64,000 bases of DNA from Escherichia coli (GTDB lineage: Bacteria; Pseudomonadota; Gammaproteobacteria; Enterobacterales; Enterobacteriaceae): assembly GCF_030384885.1 (NCBI RefSeq), contig NZ_CP128613.1, one strand, 5' to 3'. Of the stretch, positions 10,696-38,430 are shown piece after piece (the stretch's first letter is position 1; each line of letters starts with the position of its first letter). A program made the position numbers and the translations under genes. The notes under the pieces were generated by a model that saw nothing but the letters and a program-made list of their open reading frames with translations, did not search any database and had not been told where the DNA came from.

Positions 10696-10796
10696 CGTAG
10701 TCCGGATAAGGCGCTCGCGCCGCATCCGGCACTGTTGCCAAACTCCAGCACCGCAATAATGTCGGATGCGATGCTTGCGCATCTTATCCGACCTAC
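10696..10796. repeat. REP/BIME-type palindromic units (two, inverted)
   Basis: gtagtccggataaggcgctcgcgccgcatccggca and gtcggatgcgatgcttgcgcatcttatccgacctac. Confidence 0.6.
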
Positions 10797-26152: not shown

Positions 26153-26289
26153 CAAACTCCCGGCTTGTCCGGGAGTTTGAACGCAAAATTGCCTGATGCG
26201 CTACGCTTATCAGGCCTACGAAATATCTGCAACGCATTGAATTTACGTGTTTTTTATGTCTGACAAGGCGTTCACGCCGCATCCGGCAC
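26153..26289. repeat. Stem-loop plus REP-type palindromic units downstream of gldA
   Basis: Perfect 10-bp stem aaactcccgg/ccgggagttt; REP-like gcctgatgcgctacgcttatcaggcctac and gacaaggcgttcacgccgcatccggcact. Confidence 0.55.
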
Positions 26290-31535: not shown

Positions 31536-31808
31536 AGGAAAAGCTGAAGGGCGTCAACCGAAAAATGACCAATGATGGTGAGGAAAAATCAGGGAAGATG
31601 AAAAAAATTCAGGATAAAGGCCAAAGTTCCTCGTACCTGAACATGTGGAATATACCTCATTTAAGATGATATTTATTTGTTTAATTATTTTTTCTATTAA
31701 CCGGTGCAACGAGTGTTAAAGCGTGTAATTTTAGGATTATATCAATAGTCACGGTTATACAAACAGTGATAATTTATGAAATAATTTTATTTACCAGAGG
31801 AATAGCGC

Positions 31809-32783
31809 ATGTATCTTAATACTCAAGTTCAATATAATAAGTTAAATAAAGATGAAAAAAAGATCCTGTTGTTACAAAAGCTAGCCCATTTAACTGATTT
31901 TACTTTTGACAGAATAGAGACATTTTCAGCATTTGGACAATCTACTGAAACAGGTGTTTTTAAATATAAAGATGGCAATGAATTTGTTGTTGTCCCCGGG
32001 GATACAGTAATATTAGGGTGGGATGCCAGTCTCAATAATATGGATGGTCCGACAAAACAAGAATTTGAAGAGATGTTGGAACCAGAAGGTTTAGATTTGA
32101 ATAATTATCTCACCGACTCTTGCACACCTGTCAGGAAGGTTACAATTTCCCCGATGCTGGTTGAAAGAAACGTTCACGCCGAACCAAGTTGGAAGGAAGT
32201 ATCTCTTACGGACCCCCGCATCACAGAGAACAGCATGCTGCAAAAATTTCTGTCTGATTATATGGAAAAAATTAATCCTGGAGTTCACGAATTAAACGCA
32301 AGATTGAGATTACAATATATAGATGGGGATTTATTTGCACAAATATATGAATCAATTAGCTATGATGAGTTACTTCAAAATATCCAAAGCAATAGTTTTG
32401 ATCTTCCGAGCGAAGATGAATGGGAATATTTATGTGGCGGTGGTTCCAGGACACTCTGGCGCTGGGGGAATAATTTCGACTATCAAATGAAAATCCCATT
32501 TATTACTTCAGAAGAACCAACAACCTGGGATATAGAATGGCCTAATCAGTTTGGGTTGCAGATTGCATTTGATCCCTATCTTCAGGAAATTATTAATGAT
32601 AAAGATATTCTTCTGAAAGGTGGCGATGGTGGGTGCAATCTCTGCGGAGGTGCTAATGTTGTATTAGGATTCTTGCCTGTGGCAACTTATTACAAAGGAT
32701 ATAATAAACATACGGACGAATTAGAATATATGGATGACATTGGAGACAATTATACTTCTTATCGCAGAATAATTCGTTTATGA
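31809..32783 (+). CDS. Hypothetical protein, AT-rich gene; weak FGE-sulfatase (SUMF1)-like motif
   Basis: 324 aa ORF with AGAGGA RBS; motif LPSEDEWEYLCGGGSRTLWRWGNNFD resembles the FGE-domain EWEY...GG core; no other FGE signatures recognised. Confidence 0.6.
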   Translation: MYLNTQVQYNKLNKDEKKILLLQKLAHLTDFTFDRIETFSAFGQSTETGVFKYKDGNEFVVVPGDTVILGWDASLNNMDGPTKQEFEEMLEPEGLDLNNYLTDSCTPVRKVTISPMLVERNVHAEPSWKEVSLTDPRITENSMLQKFLSDYMEKINPGVHELNARLRLQYIDGDLFAQIYESISYDELLQNIQSNSFDLPSEDEWEYLCGGGSRTLWRWGNNFDYQMKIPFITSEEPTTWDIEWPNQFGLQIAFDPYLQEIINDKDILLKGGDGGCNLCGGANVVLGFLPVATYYKGYNKHTDELEYMDDIGDNYTSYRRIIRL

Positions 32784-32864
32784 GTAAAAATTATATTTCA
32801 GGACAAGAAGTTATGCTCGAGTCAAGCTAATGAATTGCTTAACGCAAGGAATAAAAACGTATTG

Positions 32865-34346
32865 ATGAACACTGGGAATTTCGAGTCGATACAAATCATG
32901 ATCGCCGCGCAAGAGTGGCGTAGCCTGCCGCTGCATCTGCGTTTGTATCAGGCTTTTCGTCAGTTGGTGATTTCTGGCGCGTTGTCTGATGGCGCAAAAC
33001 TGCCGTCCGCTCGCGCACTGGCCCAGCAACTGCACCTTTCCAGAGATACCATCGAAAATGCCTATTCCCAGCTCCACCGCGACGGTTTTATGGCTCGCAG
33101 GCAGGGGGCCGGGAGTTTCGCCAGCCGCCAGGGGATACCGCATATTCAGGGCCAGCATGCGCAACCACCCTCGCCCGGACAAGTACCGGCTTTAAGCGCT
33201 CGCTGGCAGCCAATTGCCGATCGCGCAGTCTCTTTCGATGCCCGCCAGATGCAGACCTTTACGCTTGGCCTGCCGGAAACGCGAAACTTCCCGCTAAACA
33301 TTTGGCAGAACTTTTCCCGCCAGATCCAACGTGAGCAGGCGCATACGCTGATGTTAAATAGCGATCCGCAGGGCGAGCCACAGCTGCGCCAGCAAATTGC
33401 GCATTACCTTAATTTTGAACGCGGCGCGAAGGTAGATGCCGGGCAGATTGTGATTGTCAGCGGCGCACGGCAGGCGTTCTGGCTGTGCGGGCAACTGCTG
33501 GCAGAGGCCGGACAGTCGGTGGCGATGGAAAATCCGGGCTATCCCGGCGCGCGTCAGGCGTTTTCTGCCGCACAGCTTAATCTTCTTCCCGTTGAAGTGG
33601 ATGACGCCGGGATCCGGGTGGATAAACTGCCGCCCGCGCCGCTGGTTTACGTCACGCCCTCGCACCAGTTTCCTTCCGGTCATTTGCTCACGCTGGCGCG
33701 GCGTCATGCCCTGATTGCCTGGGCGCAGGCGCACAATGCATGGATTATCGAAGACGACTACGACAGCGAATTTCACTACACCAGCGCGCCCGTCGCCTGT
33801 CTGCAAGGGTTAGACTGCGAGCAACGCACCCTGTATGTCGGCACTTTCAGCAAAACGCTCTATCCCGGCCTGCGCATCGGTTATCTGGTGGTGCCGACGT
33901 CGCTGGCTGCGCACTTTGCCGCCGCGCGTAATTTGCTTGATGGCGCAACGCCTGCGTTATCCCAACTAACGCTGGCGCGATTTATCGAGTCCGGTCATTT
34001 TGCCGCCCATATTCGCAACATGCGCAGTATGTACGCAGTGCGACAGGCGAGCCTGGCAGAGGCTATTCATCAACACTTAAGTGAATGGGTCACGCCAGTG
34101 GTGACATCCGGTGGGTTACAAATGCCCTGCTGGCTGCATGAAGGTATTGATGAGCAACAGACGCTAAATGCCGCGCGCCGCGCCGGGTTAAACATCGCCG
34201 GAATGCGCCAGTTCTGGCTGACGCACCCCGCGCCCGCGGGCTGGCTGCTGGGATTTGCCGCCTTTACCCCCTACGAGATTGAACAGGGCGTCAAGCGTCT
34301 GCGGGCTGCATTATGCACTGAAAACGTGCGCCCAGCCGGGTCATAA
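32865..34346 (+). CDS. MocR/GntR-family regulator with fused PLP aminotransferase-like domain
   Basis: N-terminal GntR HTH (…LPSARALAQQLHLSRDTIENAYSQLHRDGFMARRQGAGSFAS…) and large C-terminal fold-type-I-like domain; start ambiguous (TTG 32835, ATG 32865 or 32898). Confidence 0.8.
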   Translation: MNTGNFESIQIMIAAQEWRSLPLHLRLYQAFRQLVISGALSDGAKLPSARALAQQLHLSRDTIENAYSQLHRDGFMARRQGAGSFASRQGIPHIQGQHAQPPSPGQVPALSARWQPIADRAVSFDARQMQTFTLGLPETRNFPLNIWQNFSRQIQREQAHTLMLNSDPQGEPQLRQQIAHYLNFERGAKVDAGQIVIVSGARQAFWLCGQLLAEAGQSVAMENPGYPGARQAFSAAQLNLLPVEVDDAGIRVDKLPPAPLVYVTPSHQFPSGHLLTLARRHALIAWAQAHNAWIIEDDYDSEFHYTSAPVACLQGLDCEQRTLYVGTFSKTLYPGLRIGYLVVPTSLAAHFAAARNLLDGATPALSQLTLARFIESGHFAAHIRNMRSMYAVRQASLAEAIHQHLSEWVTPVVTSGGLQMPCWLHEGIDEQQTLNAARRAGLNIAGMRQFWLTHPAPAGWLLGFAAFTPYEIEQGVKRLRAALCTENVRPAGS

Positions 34347-35397
34347 TCTCATACGGGATGGTGTTGCAGGCAGCGGCAACCTGTTCCAGCGTCTGGCCTG
34401 CGCCAATAAATTCCACCTTATCGCCCGCTGTCGGCGTGACGGCGCTGGCATCGACCATAAAGCTGTCCATACAAACCCGCCCCAATACCGGTAACCGCAC
34501 GCCGCGCCAGCATACGCCCGCCGGAGGACGCATATTTCGCGGAACGCCATCCGCGTAACCCGCGGATATCGTAGCGATACGCAGCGGACGCGTGGCGGTA
34601 ATCGTACTGCCATAGCCAACTGGCGTTCCCGCCGGGACATCCTGCACGCGCAGAATAGTTAGCGTCAGCGTAAAAGCCGGTTTTAGCGGCCTGGAAAACC
34701 ACGGCTGGGCGACGCCAAACAGCGCAATCCCCGGACGGCAGAGATCTTCCCGCCAACCTGGTTGCAAAAACATTCCGCAGGAGTTCGCCAGCGAAAATCG
34801 GCTGCTGGGGAAAACCGTTTTTGCCTGCTGGAATAGCGCGTGTTGCGCCACATTTAACGCATGATCCGGCCTGTCGGCGTTCGCCAGATGGCTGATGATA
34901 TAGTCCGGCGCAGGCCAGTTACGCTCACGAAATATCGCCGCCAGACGCATCAGTTGTTGCGGCATCACGCCCAGCCGCGACATACCGGAATCGAGCTGGA
35001 TCATCACCGCACGCCGCTGCTGGCGCGTTTCCAGTAACGTAAGCCACGCCATCACCTGGTCAATGGAATTGAGCAATGGCGTGATCTGCTGCGCGTAACA
35101 ATACGCCATCGCCTCCGGCATAACCCCATTAAGCACTACCACCATCGCATCAGTGGGCAGGATTTTACGCAGCGCCACGCCCTCCGAAAGCTGTGCCACA
35201 AAAAAGATCCGGCAGTTCGCCGCATACAGGGCGGGCGCAATCGCCTCCGCCCCCAGACCATAGGCATTGGCTTTCAACACCGCGCCACATTGCGCAGGGG
35301 CAACATGGCGCGCCAGCGTGCGATAATTATCGACGATGGCGGCGAGATTGACGCACATAACGCCGCACGCCGCCTGGATTTCAGTAGAAGTCATCAT
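34291..35397 (-). CDS. Alanine racemase-family PLP enzyme (fold type III)
   Basis: PLP-lysine motif AVLKANAYGLGA and C-terminal GRVCMDSFMVD motif; start ATG overlaps the stop of the upstream SHMT-like gene (ATGA). Confidence 0.85.
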   Translation of the reverse strand: MMTSTEIQAACGVMCVNLAAIVDNYRTLARHVAPAQCGAVLKANAYGLGAEAIAPALYAANCRIFFVAQLSEGVALRKILPTDAMVVVLNGVMPEAMAYCYAQQITPLLNSIDQVMAWLTLLETRQQRRAVMIQLDSGMSRLGVMPQQLMRLAAIFRERNWPAPDYIISHLANADRPDHALNVAQHALFQQAKTVFPSSRFSLANSCGMFLQPGWREDLCRPGIALFGVAQPWFSRPLKPAFTLTLTILRVQDVPAGTPVGYGSTITATRPLRIATISAGYADGVPRNMRPPAGVCWRGVRLPVLGRVCMDSFMVDASAVTPTAGDKVEFIGAGQTLEQVAAACNTIPYEIMTRLGARFQCIMQPADA

Positions 35398-36632
35398 TGA
35401 TAAGACAACGGGTAGCGGTTGGTTAGTTGTATTACTTTTTGCTCAATATCGGCGCAAATGCCTGCGATATCTGACGAGTTGATGGCGAAAATGATTTCAC
35501 TTATCCAGTCAGCAATAAGCACAAAATCATCCGCCTTCATCCCACGCGTGGTGCAGGCCGCGCTGCCAATACGGACCCCGGAGGTAATCGACGGCGGCTG
35601 CGGATCGCCCGGCAGGGTGTTTTTATTGACCGTGATCCCCGCCAGTTCGAGAAAGTACTCCACCTGTGCGCCGGTTAACCCCTGCGGGCGCAGGTCGATA
35701 ATCCCCAGATGGCAGTCGGTGCCGCCCGTTAACAGCGTCAGACCGCGCTGCGCCAGTTGCTGGCACATCGCCTGCGCATTGTCGATAACCTACCCGGCGT
35801 AACGTTTAAATTCTGGTTGTAATGCCTCGCCAAGCGCCACCGCTTTCGCCGCGATAACGTGCATCAACGGCCCGCCCTGCAAACCGGGAAAGATGGCGCT
35901 GTCGATTTTTTTCGCAAGCCTGGCGTCATTGGTGAGGATCATGCCGCCGCGCGGCCCGCGCAACGTTTTATGCGTGGTGGTGGTGACCACATCAGCATAC
36001 GCCAGCGGCGAAGGAAAACAGCCGCCCGCCACCAGCCCGGCAAAGTGCGCCATATCCACCAGCAAAATGGCATCAACGGCATCGGCAATGCGGCGAAAAC
36101 GGGCAAAATCATAGTGGCGTGGATAAGCCGATCCTCCGGCAATAATTAACCGTGGGCGCTCGCGTAGCGCGATCATCTCGACCTCATCCATATCAATCAG
36201 GCCACTATGGGCATCGACGCCATAGTGAAAGGCGTTAAACCATTTGCCGGATTGATTGACCGGAGAACCGTGCGTGAGATGCCCGCCGCATTGCAGGCTC
36301 ATGCCAAGAATTTTGTCGCCGGGCTTCAGCAACGCCAGATAGACCGCCTGATTCGCCTGGCTGCCGGAGTGAGGCTGCACATTGACGTAACGCGCGCCAA
36401 AGAGCTGCTGCGCGCGGGTTATCGCCAGCATCTCAACCTCATCAATAAACTTACAGCCGCCGTAATAGCGATGCTGGTAATAACCTTCGGCGTATTTATT
36501 GGTTAACACCGACCCCTGCGCCGCGAGAACGGCGGGGCTTACGAAATTCTCCGAGGCAATCAGTTCCAGCGACTGCTGCTGGCGCTGTTGCTCCTGGTTA
36601 ATCAATGCAAAAAGTGGATCGTTATTTATCAT
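35394..36632 (-). pseudogene. Serine hydroxymethyltransferase (GlyA)-like gene interrupted by an in-frame TAG at 35790-35792
   Basis: N-terminal ORF (…[31 protein letters not shown]…[14 protein letters not shown]…PEFKRYAG*) and C-terminal ORF (VIDNAQAM…TSGVRIGSAA…) are in the same frame, separated only by TAG where GlyA has Gln. Confidence 0.75.
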
Positions 36633-36864
36633 GCGCTTCCCCCGCAAATTCATCATGCGATGATTTTCGCAGGGAAAACCTCGTCCGCACCCTGCCACTT
36701 TTTAGACTGAGCGCAGACCACCTATGTCGTTTTACTTAAAAGAAGAGGGAAGAAGGCTCCAGGCATCTCCATATGCGATTCTGGTTGGTAATACATCATA
36801 TTCCAGCTGCTCTTATCCGCCTACGTTATTGCATATACGGATAAGGCAGCCTCAATACGTACTT

Positions 36865-38430
36865 TTACTTGATATCTTTCACGCGCATACCGTTGATCTG
36901 TTCATCCGTGATGGTATTACCCGCTTTAAAGTAATCAACCACCGCGTGATAAACGTAATAACCGCCCGTCGTATTGCGCGCTTTACCCTCGGTAAACGCG
37001 GTAAAACCATCTCCACCATCAGCAAGGAAACTCTGAGTGGCAATGTGGTAAACCGTCGCATCTTCAATCGGTTCGCCATTCAGAGTCAGCGAGATAACCC
37101 GCTGACCAACCGGCTTGCTGCTGTCGTACTTCATTTCCAGGCCTTTCGATACCTGTAAAACGCCATTACTTAAACTTGCGCCGTGTTCCATCAAACTGCG
37201 TAATTGTTTACCCGTGAGTTCCATCGTCACCAGTTCGTTGGGGAACGGGAAGGTACTGATGACGCCACCCATCGTAATTGCACCCGCCGGGATCTCATTG
37301 CGGATACCGCCAGAGTTGGTTAACGCCAACTGGGTATTTTTACCCGCCGCTGCCAGCAAAGCGTCCGCCGCCAGATTCCCGAGAGAAGCCGATTCACCAT
37401 AGGCACGTTTCAATTCAACTGGCGATTGCGCCACCGTTTGCTGCACGACTTCATCCAGCTTTTTATTCCAACTATCAATCACCTGTTTTGTTTGCGGATC
37501 GGGCTTCCACTCGTCGGCGTAAAGGGTTTTAAGCTCGAAGTTTTTCACCGTAAAAGTGTGCGGCTTCTCTTTGTAGTCTAGAACCAGTTTACCCACATCA
37601 ATCCCGCCGCTGTCAGTGGAGAGGATTAACGTATTGCCGACTTTAATCGGTTCCGGCGTACCCACATGTGCATGCCCGGTGATCAAAATATCCAGCCCTT
37701 TCACCTGACTTGCCGTCTGAATATCTTTATCCAGTGCGCGGCGCACATCTGTGCCCCCCATACTGGACTGGCGGGCCGGAACACCTTCGTGAATCAGCGC
37801 AACGGTCAAATCAACCTTGCCTTTGAGTTCATCGATATAACGTTGTAGCCATTTAATTTCATCACGCGCCTCAATACCCACTCGCGTTGCCGCAGATACC
37901 GTATCATTAAAGGCAAATACACCGTGCAAACCAATCACGCCAATTTTCACGCCGTCTTTTTCAATGATGGTATAGGGCTTATCCCAGAATGATTTACTGC
38001 TGTTCTGATAAAAAACATTACCCTGCACAATCGGGAATTTTGCCTGACTCAACTGTAATAACGTATTGTCCCAGCCGTGATCAAATTCATGATTACCTAT
38101 AGTGGCCGCATCGAACGGCATGGTATTCATAATATCGATAATCGCCTTGCCTTTAGTCAGGCTGCTAATATACGGCCCGGTAAAATAGTCACCCGCATCA
38201 AAAAACCAGGTCGCTTTGTTTTTAGCTTTTTCTTGTTTAACAAGCGTAGTGATATTTGCCCAGCCGCCAATATCTCGTTTACCGTCAGCAATCCACGGCA
38301 CTTTATAAGGCTCTACATGTGCATGGAGGTCGTTGGTATAAATGATGGTGACATCTTTGGCGCAAGCCCAAAACGGCAGTGTTAATGCGATACCCGCAGC
38401 AAGCATTTTAATTTTCATAAACAATCCCAT
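36865..38430 (-). CDS. UshA/CpdB-family periplasmic nucleotidase (paralog A)
   Basis: Signal peptide [20 protein letters not shown]; metallophosphatase motifs [26 protein letters not shown]; C-terminal 5'-nucleotidase-type domain (…[13 protein letters not shown]…). Confidence 0.85.

Follow-up and report, generated by a model that had tools for sequence, protein, structure and literature searches.

What a REP-like palindrome might do just past the stop codon of a 5'-nucleotidase gene in Escherichia coli, and whether it sets that gene apart from the two PLP-enzyme genes that follow, is the question raised by the locus described here. The window, by which is meant the whole stretch of 64,000 nucleotides that was analysed, was found to be 100% identical to the chromosome of E. 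coli 2013C-4282, and the genes of interest lie in the region between metF and metL (Table 1). Every gene flanking the spacer, encoding the nucleotidase, an SHMT-like protein and an alanine-racemase-like protein, is carried on the minus strand. Metallophos and 5_nucleotid_C domains are assigned to the nucleotidase by Pfam, on its orthologues. RefSeq starts the SHMT-like gene at another in-frame ATG (36651-36653), upstream of the start listed in Table 1. The plus-strand MocR-like gene and the minus-strand alanine-racemase-like gene share 56 bp where their 3' ends meet (34291-34346), and an identical 56-bp overlap is called in Salmonella loci, e.g. at 6287-6342 of contig L085. In the window the SHMT-like gene carries a CAG-to-TAG nonsense codon (35790-35792, minus strand), which divides it into 280 amino acids and a 124-amino-acid remainder. 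A different internal stop, near codon 20, was found in E. coli GF4-3 (contig L004), and in some Salmonella contigs (L091-L094) the gene is split at residue 322; it is intact in E. coli RMDEC465 and in most Salmonella copies. As the lesions differ from strain to strain, the gene appears to have been inactivated independently, several times.

Table 1. Position, strand and basis of the features of the nucleotidase/SHMT-like region (window coordinates).
Feature	Position	Strand	Basis or remark
5'-nucleotidase ("nucleotidase A", periplasmic-type) CDS	36865-38418	minus	translation; RefSeq annotation of identical record NZ_CP027579.1
TAA stop of 5'-nucleotidase	36865-36867	minus	
Nucleotidase/SHMT-like spacer, 232 bp	36633-36864	minus	
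14 nt 3' of the stop, AAGUACGUAUUGAG	36851-36864	minus	shared with the common E. coli haplotype; partly in outer helix
Full predicted structure	36797-36859	minus	adds outer 6-bp helix CGUAUU/AAUAUG
Core REP-like stem-loop	36805-36851	minus	folds and inverted repeat; 5' arm GGCUGCCUUAUCCGU (36837-36851)
Core stem-loop, 3' arm	36805-36820	minus	GCGGAUAAG-A-GCAGCU
Palindrome of the initial annotation, cttatccgcctacgttattgcatatacggataagg	36812-36846		in spacer
REP-head-like motif GTAGGCGGATAAGAGCAGC	36806-36824	minus	motif search; comparison with REPs of the window
Hairpin written as a pattern			CTTATYCNGCCTA-N(8-12)-TAGGCNGATAAG
Non-conserved linker with pyrimidine tract (CCUUCUUCCCUCUUCUUUU)	36725-36804	minus	poorly structured
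Conserved 91-nt block	36633-36724	minus	adjoins SHMT start; sequence comparison in three contexts
Direct repeat GGTGGTC...(23-nt offset)...AAGTGGC	36694-36722	minus	upstream edge of the block
Conserved 45-nt hairpin	36635-36679	minus	pairs UUUUCCCUGCG with UGCGGGGGAA
SHMT-like gene, probable ATG start	36630-36632	minus	
Alanine-racemase-like gene	34291-35397	minus	
MocR/PdxR-like regulator	32865-34346	plus	convergent with alanine-racemase-like gene
Rare 5.24-kb segment	31611-36850		hypothetical protein, MocR/PdxR-like regulator, alanine racemase-like, SHMT-like

The initial annotation had described an imperfect palindrome with REP-like ends in the 232-bp spacer, just past the nucleotidase stop codon. 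The string and the limits of the spacer proved to be exact, and the position past the stop is right given that the genes lie on the minus strand: from the TAA it is 13 nt to the core stem and 5 nt to the outer helix. The palindrome is indeed imperfect, but its extent is larger than had been described, since the quoted string covers only part of the core and of the full structure. A repeat search returned perfect 8-nt arms (36812-36819 and 36838-36845) separated by 18 nt, and these lengthen with one bulge to GCTGC(T)CTTATCCG and CGGATAAGGCAGC (36805-36851). In the predicted fold the core has 15 + 4 pairs, interrupted by a single bulged A and a 1x1 internal loop and capped by the apical loop CAAUAA, and on the transcribed strand it reads GGCUGCCUUAUCCGU-A-UAUG-CAAUAA-CGUA-G-GCGGAUAAG-A-GCAGCU.

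Secondary-structure prediction of the spacer, which had been suggested as a check, returned a stable fold. The 70-nt sense RNA gave -32.5 kcal/mol against -13.7 +/- 2.7 for its shuffles (z = -7.0; none of the 200 equalled it), and the 51-nt core gave -26.5 kcal/mol (z = -6.0). When 51-nt sliding folds were computed along the whole window on both strands, the hairpin ranked as the 11th most stable locus, within the top 0.05% of 42,634 folded segments, despite a G+C content of only about 50%. Folding was better on the sense strand (-32.5 kcal/mol versus -21.2 for the antisense), as it also was for the corresponding hairpin of GF4-3 (-35.4 versus -26.4 kcal/mol), because several of the pairs are G-U on the transcribed strand only. 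The sequence downstream of the stem is UGGAAUAUGAUG, without a U-run, and the apical stem is AU-rich. No Rho-independent terminator was returned by a terminator scan of both strands of 36300-37200 (0 sites), and a permissive cmscan of the same interval against Rfam 15 gave four chance-level matches (E of at least 2.3, scores far below gathering), none of which overlaps the hairpin or the conserved leader discussed below. An integron attC site was also considered and was rejected on inspection, because neither end of the palindrome bears an RYYYAAC/GTTRRRY core site and its surroundings lack an integrase.

The relationship of the hairpin to REPs was examined by motif searches and by comparison with the canonical REPs that the window itself contains. 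The latter are a two-REP BIME at 10697-10796 (10697-10731 and 10761-10796, GTAGTCCGGATAAGGCG... / ...CATCTTATCCGACCTAC) and a single z-type REP at 26191-26219 (TGCCTGATGCGCTACGCTTATCAGGCCTAC), both of which serve as internal comparators. The motif GTAGGC-N(1-2)-GATAAG has two matches in 64 kb, one in the z-type REP (26206-26219) and one in the hairpin, where 0.00 would be expected, and its confinement to these two places argues that the resemblance is not accidental; the REP-like ends of the initial annotation are thereby borne out. The shorter CGGATAAG by itself occurs 4 times in the window against 1.8 expected, which is not a significant enrichment, and a search with CTTATCCGGCCTAC allowing up to 2 mismatches gave no match at the hairpin owing to a 1-nt deletion. 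On the transcribed strand the hairpin can be read as an inverted REP represented by its 3' half (..GCCTTATCCG), followed after a short linker by a REP represented by its 5' head (GTAGGC-GGATAAGAG..), and it is between these halves that the pairing takes place. The GTAG (36821-36824, minus strand) consequently lies between the arms and faces the loop, with its pairing partner upstream rather than downstream, and the arm 3' of it is paired to the upstream CCUUAUCCG. The same arrangement is seen in GF4-3, where the element is CTTATTCTGCCTA-TGCAATAACG-TAGGCAGATAAG, that is, inverted-REP tail, linker and REP head.

A full BIME is absent. Of the two REPs only the inner halves can be made out (CTTATYCYGCCTA - linker - TAGGCRGATAAG in GF4-3); the outer halves of the hairpin show no similarity to the REP y/z consensus, and neither of the flanks, AAGTACGTATTGAG and TGGAATATGATG, is complementary to the two inner REP halves. 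The palindrome spans 47 nt, is bulged and has its arms 18 nt apart, the length of a REP being given as 20-40 nt (PMC3333891). By sensitive blastn the 61-nt element was found in three of 5,426 complete E. coli genomes, at one place in each; it was not found in the plasmid collection, and a metagenome scan yielded one contig, identical to the window, and no new variants. Its topology being non-canonical and its occurrence non-repetitive, the hairpin is, as judged from its sequence, a REP-derived solitary palindrome that is lineage-specific and stands outside the REP family proper.

The distribution of the surrounding DNA defines two haplotypes. The SHMT-alr-MocR segment is carried by three of the 5,426 complete genomes (2013C-4282, RMDEC465 and GF4-3), and a further 1,840 E. 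coli genomes have the nucleotidase and lack the segment. In 1,840 out of 1,840 of these the homology to the window starts at 36851/36852, which is the outer base of the stem, and this junction holds even for nucleotidase alleles that are only 88-94% identical. In place of 31611-36850 the common allele has an unrelated 214 bp, for which no homology was found to anything at the long allele or at the Salmonella loci. SHMT-like orthologues were gathered by way of the protein database and the contigs that encode them; when GTDB species genomes were queried with the SHMT-like protein, the matches listed included housekeeping glyA (best identity 62-63%) and no orthologue. Salmonella enterica shares the gene order metL, several genes, nucleotidase, SHMT, alr, MocR, metF, and its SHMT has 92-93% protein identity to that of E. 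coli. This shared order suggests that the long E. coli haplotype is probably the ancestral one and the short haplotype derived. The only direct repeat shared by the ends of the 5.24-kb segment is the REP-core-like GGATAA(A)GGC, in direct orientation (31612-31622 and 36839-36848), which is too short for significance. The left boundary of the segment is also the end of the metF upstream sequence conserved in Salmonella, and for that reason it probably reflects selection and not mechanism. The GF4-3 locus has further peculiarities: the MocR side of its module (L004, 1-1542) is flanked by a PTS EIIC gene and malI, not by the hypothetical protein and metF, and two additional nucleotidase genes and a tsx-like gene are missing between the "cytoplasmic protein" gene and metL.

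The site past the nucleotidase stop is occupied differently in the other alleles. In Salmonella the 264-nt spacer is not homologous to the E. coli hairpin and carries strong palindromes of its own after the stop, e.g. a 14-bp stem GAUCCAGGCCGGAC...GUCUGGCCUGGAUC. The common E. coli allele also has a non-homologous palindrome of its own, ATTCGGCCTAC..GCAGGCCGAAT, about 60 nt from the stop. The stability of this last palindrome is unremarkable (z = +0.3), so the argument that each allele needs a hairpin at the site loses force. Being absent from Salmonella and from the 1,840 nucleotidase-bearing E. coli genomes, the hairpin must be considered dispensable.

The comparison of the window with GF4-3 bears on whether the fold is maintained where the hairpin does occur. 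The two loci are 94% identical; the hairpins differ by 4 substitutions and 1 indel and the remaining spacer by about 2%, so that the hairpin sequence has diverged about five times faster than the spacer around it. The fold in GF4-3 was nevertheless kept and lengthened (-35.4 kcal/mol), with a C-G pair replaced by U-A and with new GCC/GGC pairs. Among random mutation sets of equal size (5,000 trials) stability was kept in 0.2-1.2% of those that started from the window and in 3.6% of those that started from GF4-3. These observations suggest that the pairing has been under constraint across two Escherichia lineages. A caveat that applies to this comparison is that there were only two hairpin variants in everything searched, so that the case for constraint consists of one compensatory pair together with the simulation. 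Arm-to-arm correction of a DNA palindrome, with no function in RNA, could alternatively explain why the pairing was kept.

The part of the spacer next to the SHMT-like gene has a quite separate history. Conservation starts abruptly at 36724 (RGTGGTCTGC) and continues to the SHMT ATG, and the 91-nt block so defined is near-invariant in E. coli, in Salmonella and in a third context represented by ParA/DnaB contigs, in which the SHMT is 86% identical and there is no nucleotidase upstream. The hairpin and the remainder of the spacer are conserved in neither the Salmonella nor the ParA/DnaB contexts. As the block accompanies the module into these other contexts, the SHMT-alr-MocR module appears to carry its own control region, and the comparison supports the view that this region is independent of the nucleotidase and of the REP-like hairpin. 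The initial annotation had taken the hairpin to imply that the PLP-enzyme pair is transcribed or regulated separately from the nucleotidase. Separate regulation is supported by the 91-nt block, and we infer that the pair would also be transcribed separately, but the hairpin is not the evidence for it; judged by its conservation, the hairpin is not part of the SHMT-like/alanine-racemase control region.

Two features of the block may be related to control. The direct repeat at its upstream edge is a candidate operator of the adjacent MocR/PdxR-like regulator, MocR-type factors usually binding direct repeats and having regulons that include GlyA-family SHMT (PMC5320631). A loose form of the direct-repeat pattern is unspecific, with 4 matches per 64-kb window, and no GTGG-box repeats were found upstream of the MocR gene in a test for autoregulation. 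Close to the start codon the conserved 45-nt hairpin (-25.8 kcal/mol, the 17th most stable locus of the window) is predicted, by the pairing of UUUUCCCUGCG with UGCGGGGGAA, to sequester what is likely to be the Shine-Dalgarno of the SHMT-like gene. In 8 aligned sequences 99% of the cells of this hairpin are paired and there is one compensatory pair, an alignment that has no statistical power. All the aligned sequences would also allow a 6-bp helix, GCAGGG/CCCUGC, in its place, again with no statistical power. The conserved leader was not matched in the plasmid collection, and a simple consensus scan of both strands of 36300-37200 gave no sigma-70-like promoter.

Two more adventurous readings of the locus can be built on these data, and we consider the proposal that they make up to be rather unlikely. 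One is that the 91-nt block is an undescribed cis-regulatory leader belonging to an accessory SHMT-alanine-racemase operon, in which the 5' arm CCCUGC of the 45-nt hairpin would pair instead with the upstream GCAGGG to form a translational switch, possibly acting alongside the adjacent MocR-type PLP-dependent regulator. The other is that the REP-like palindrome is the fixed right-hand breakpoint of an ancient 5.2-kb deletion or replacement, a palindrome-directed rearrangement having perhaps produced the common E. coli haplotype.

With regard to the hairpin itself, the initial annotation had offered termination or stabilisation of the upstream transcript. Stabilisation is plausible for a structure that is stable, REP-like and located in a 3' UTR, and a classical terminator is not, there being no U-run and 0 scan sites. 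The reading we prefer, to which we would give a probability of roughly 0.55, is that the hairpin acts as a protective barrier at the 3' end that stabilises the nucleotidase mRNA, with Rho-aided termination downstream, and that it does so apart from SHMT control. The 3' UTR of the nucleotidase transcript would fold into a stem-loop of about 25 bp without a U-tract. This stem-loop would passively block 3'-to-5' exonucleases, as REP hairpins generally do, and would in that way fix and stabilise the 3' end of the mRNA. Incomplete termination, probably assisted by Rho, would follow within the unstructured and relatively C-rich 80 nt past the hairpin. The C/G ratio of this linker rises to 1.45 just past the hairpin versus 0.76 in the CDS, a rut-like composition that is weak. 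In RMDEC465 the linker has a 41-nt indel, the extra nucleotides lying between 36747 and 36748 (about 5540-5580 of contig L003), and these are flanked by a direct repeat CTCTTC, a pattern that slippage, or a deletion between short repeats, could produce. Both the function in RNA and the mode of termination are ones that we infer, the former from the behaviour of REPs in mRNA (PMC3333891, PMC3733652, PMC12320835), mRNAs that contain REPs being targets of RNase R and PNPase (PMC12320835).

Against this protective role must be set the possibility that the hairpin has no function and is what remains of a REP pair after decay, folding by accident and tolerated in a non-essential spacer. Such an origin would account for an element that is single-copy and rare (3/5,426 genomes), is lacking from 1,840 genomes, is not conserved in Salmonella, has a non-canonical topology without the outer REP halves and adjoins an SHMT-like gene that is itself decaying, as its nonsense codon attests. 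It is harder to reconcile with a fold that was kept and extended in a lineage where the hairpin changed about 5x faster than the spacer, or with the markedly better folding on the transcribed strand, and we consider it a doubtful explanation, if one that deserves to be taken seriously. The hairpin might instead, as a stable structure within about 15 nt of the stop codon, lower translation of the nucleotidase by hindering the terminating ribosome, with stalling and trans-translation as the outcome. REPs near stop codons are reportedly associated with these effects, in work attributed to Liang, Rudd and Deutscher in 2015, and with the core stem 13 nt and the outer helix 5 nt past the stop a ribosome at the stop codon would have to unwind the stem. 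The palindrome of the common allele is, on the other hand, about 60 nt from its stop, so proximity to the stop is not conserved at the site, and an effect on translation seems improbable.

The three other explanations are effectively excluded. A Rho-independent terminator dividing the nucleotidase transcript from the SHMT-alr transcript is brought to mind by a strong stem immediately past a stop codon, but neither strand has a U-run after the stem, the terminator scan of 36300-37200 gave 0 sites, and the AU-rich apical region is atypical of such a structure. The hairpin does lie in the spacer upstream of the SHMT-like/alanine-racemase pair, and its structure is conserved within Escherichia, as an operator, riboswitch or leader structure regulating that pair might be; against this, the module occurs without the hairpin in Salmonella and in the ParA/DnaB context, conservation begins only at 36724 and there is no Rfam match. 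Least probable of all is a chance palindrome with no relation to REPs. Its perfect arms are merely 8 nt and CGGATAAG is not significantly enriched (4 versus 1.8 expected), but a z of -7 in the top 0.05% of the window, an expectation of 0.00 for the 13-nt REP-head motif and the form CTTATTCTGCCTA-linker-TAGGCAGATAAG in GF4-3, which amounts to two REP ends face to face, all speak against it.

The hairpin adds one more REP-derived sequence to those surviving as solitary, structure-preserving 3'-UTR elements, and its importance is limited. It is an ordinary REP-related 3'-UTR feature, and the haplotype breakpoint and the leader alone might repay more work. The palindrome coincides to the base with the boundary of two E. 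coli haplotypes, the short (1,840 genomes) and the long (3 genomes). The dissection of the spacer is the more useful outcome, as it shows that the SHMT-like/alanine-racemase/MocR module, rare in E. coli and found at the same place in Salmonella, has its own compact conserved control region, which could be tested for operator or RNA-switch activity.

Compared with known systems, the hairpin has much in common with REPs and BIMEs. It lies outside genes, its palindrome is imperfect through a bulge or mismatch, and it occupies the typical position of a REP, a 3' UTR between co-oriented genes. Its GTAGGC-GGATAAG matches the REP head (GTAGGCCGGATAAGG / GTAGGCCTGATAAG), its CCTTATCCG matches the tail of an inverted REP, and in GF4-3 the halves resemble the inner junction of a BIME (inverted REP, linker, REP) without either outer half. 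In a REP the GTAG is located 5' of the hairpin and outside it, and binding by TnpA(REP)/RAYT requires a complete REP with both the 5' GTAG and the stem mismatch (PMC3333891). Here, by contrast, the GTAG is on the loop side of the stem, the outer halves are missing and neither half of the hairpin is a complete REP for recognition by TnpA(REP). Unlike the REPs of the y, z1 and z2 classes, of which there are roughly 600 copies in E. coli, the hairpin is single-copy; one base of the REP consensus is deleted (GGC-GG versus GGCCGG), and its stem, at about 19-25 bp, exceeds theirs in length and in AU content.

With intrinsic terminators the hairpin shares its location directly downstream of a stop codon, and it differs from them in the AU-rich apical stem, the lack of any match in the terminator scan and the absence of a U-tract, for which last reason it is not regarded as an intrinsic terminator. 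Another parallel is offered by the stem-loops without U-tracts that Dar and Sorek are said to have described in 2018, at which the trimming of Rho-dependent transcripts by exonucleases reportedly stops and so sets their mature 3' ends. The C/G bias here is modest, but like those stem-loops the hairpin is stable, has no U-run, lies near the stop codon and is followed by an unstructured, relatively C-rich and G-poor stretch.
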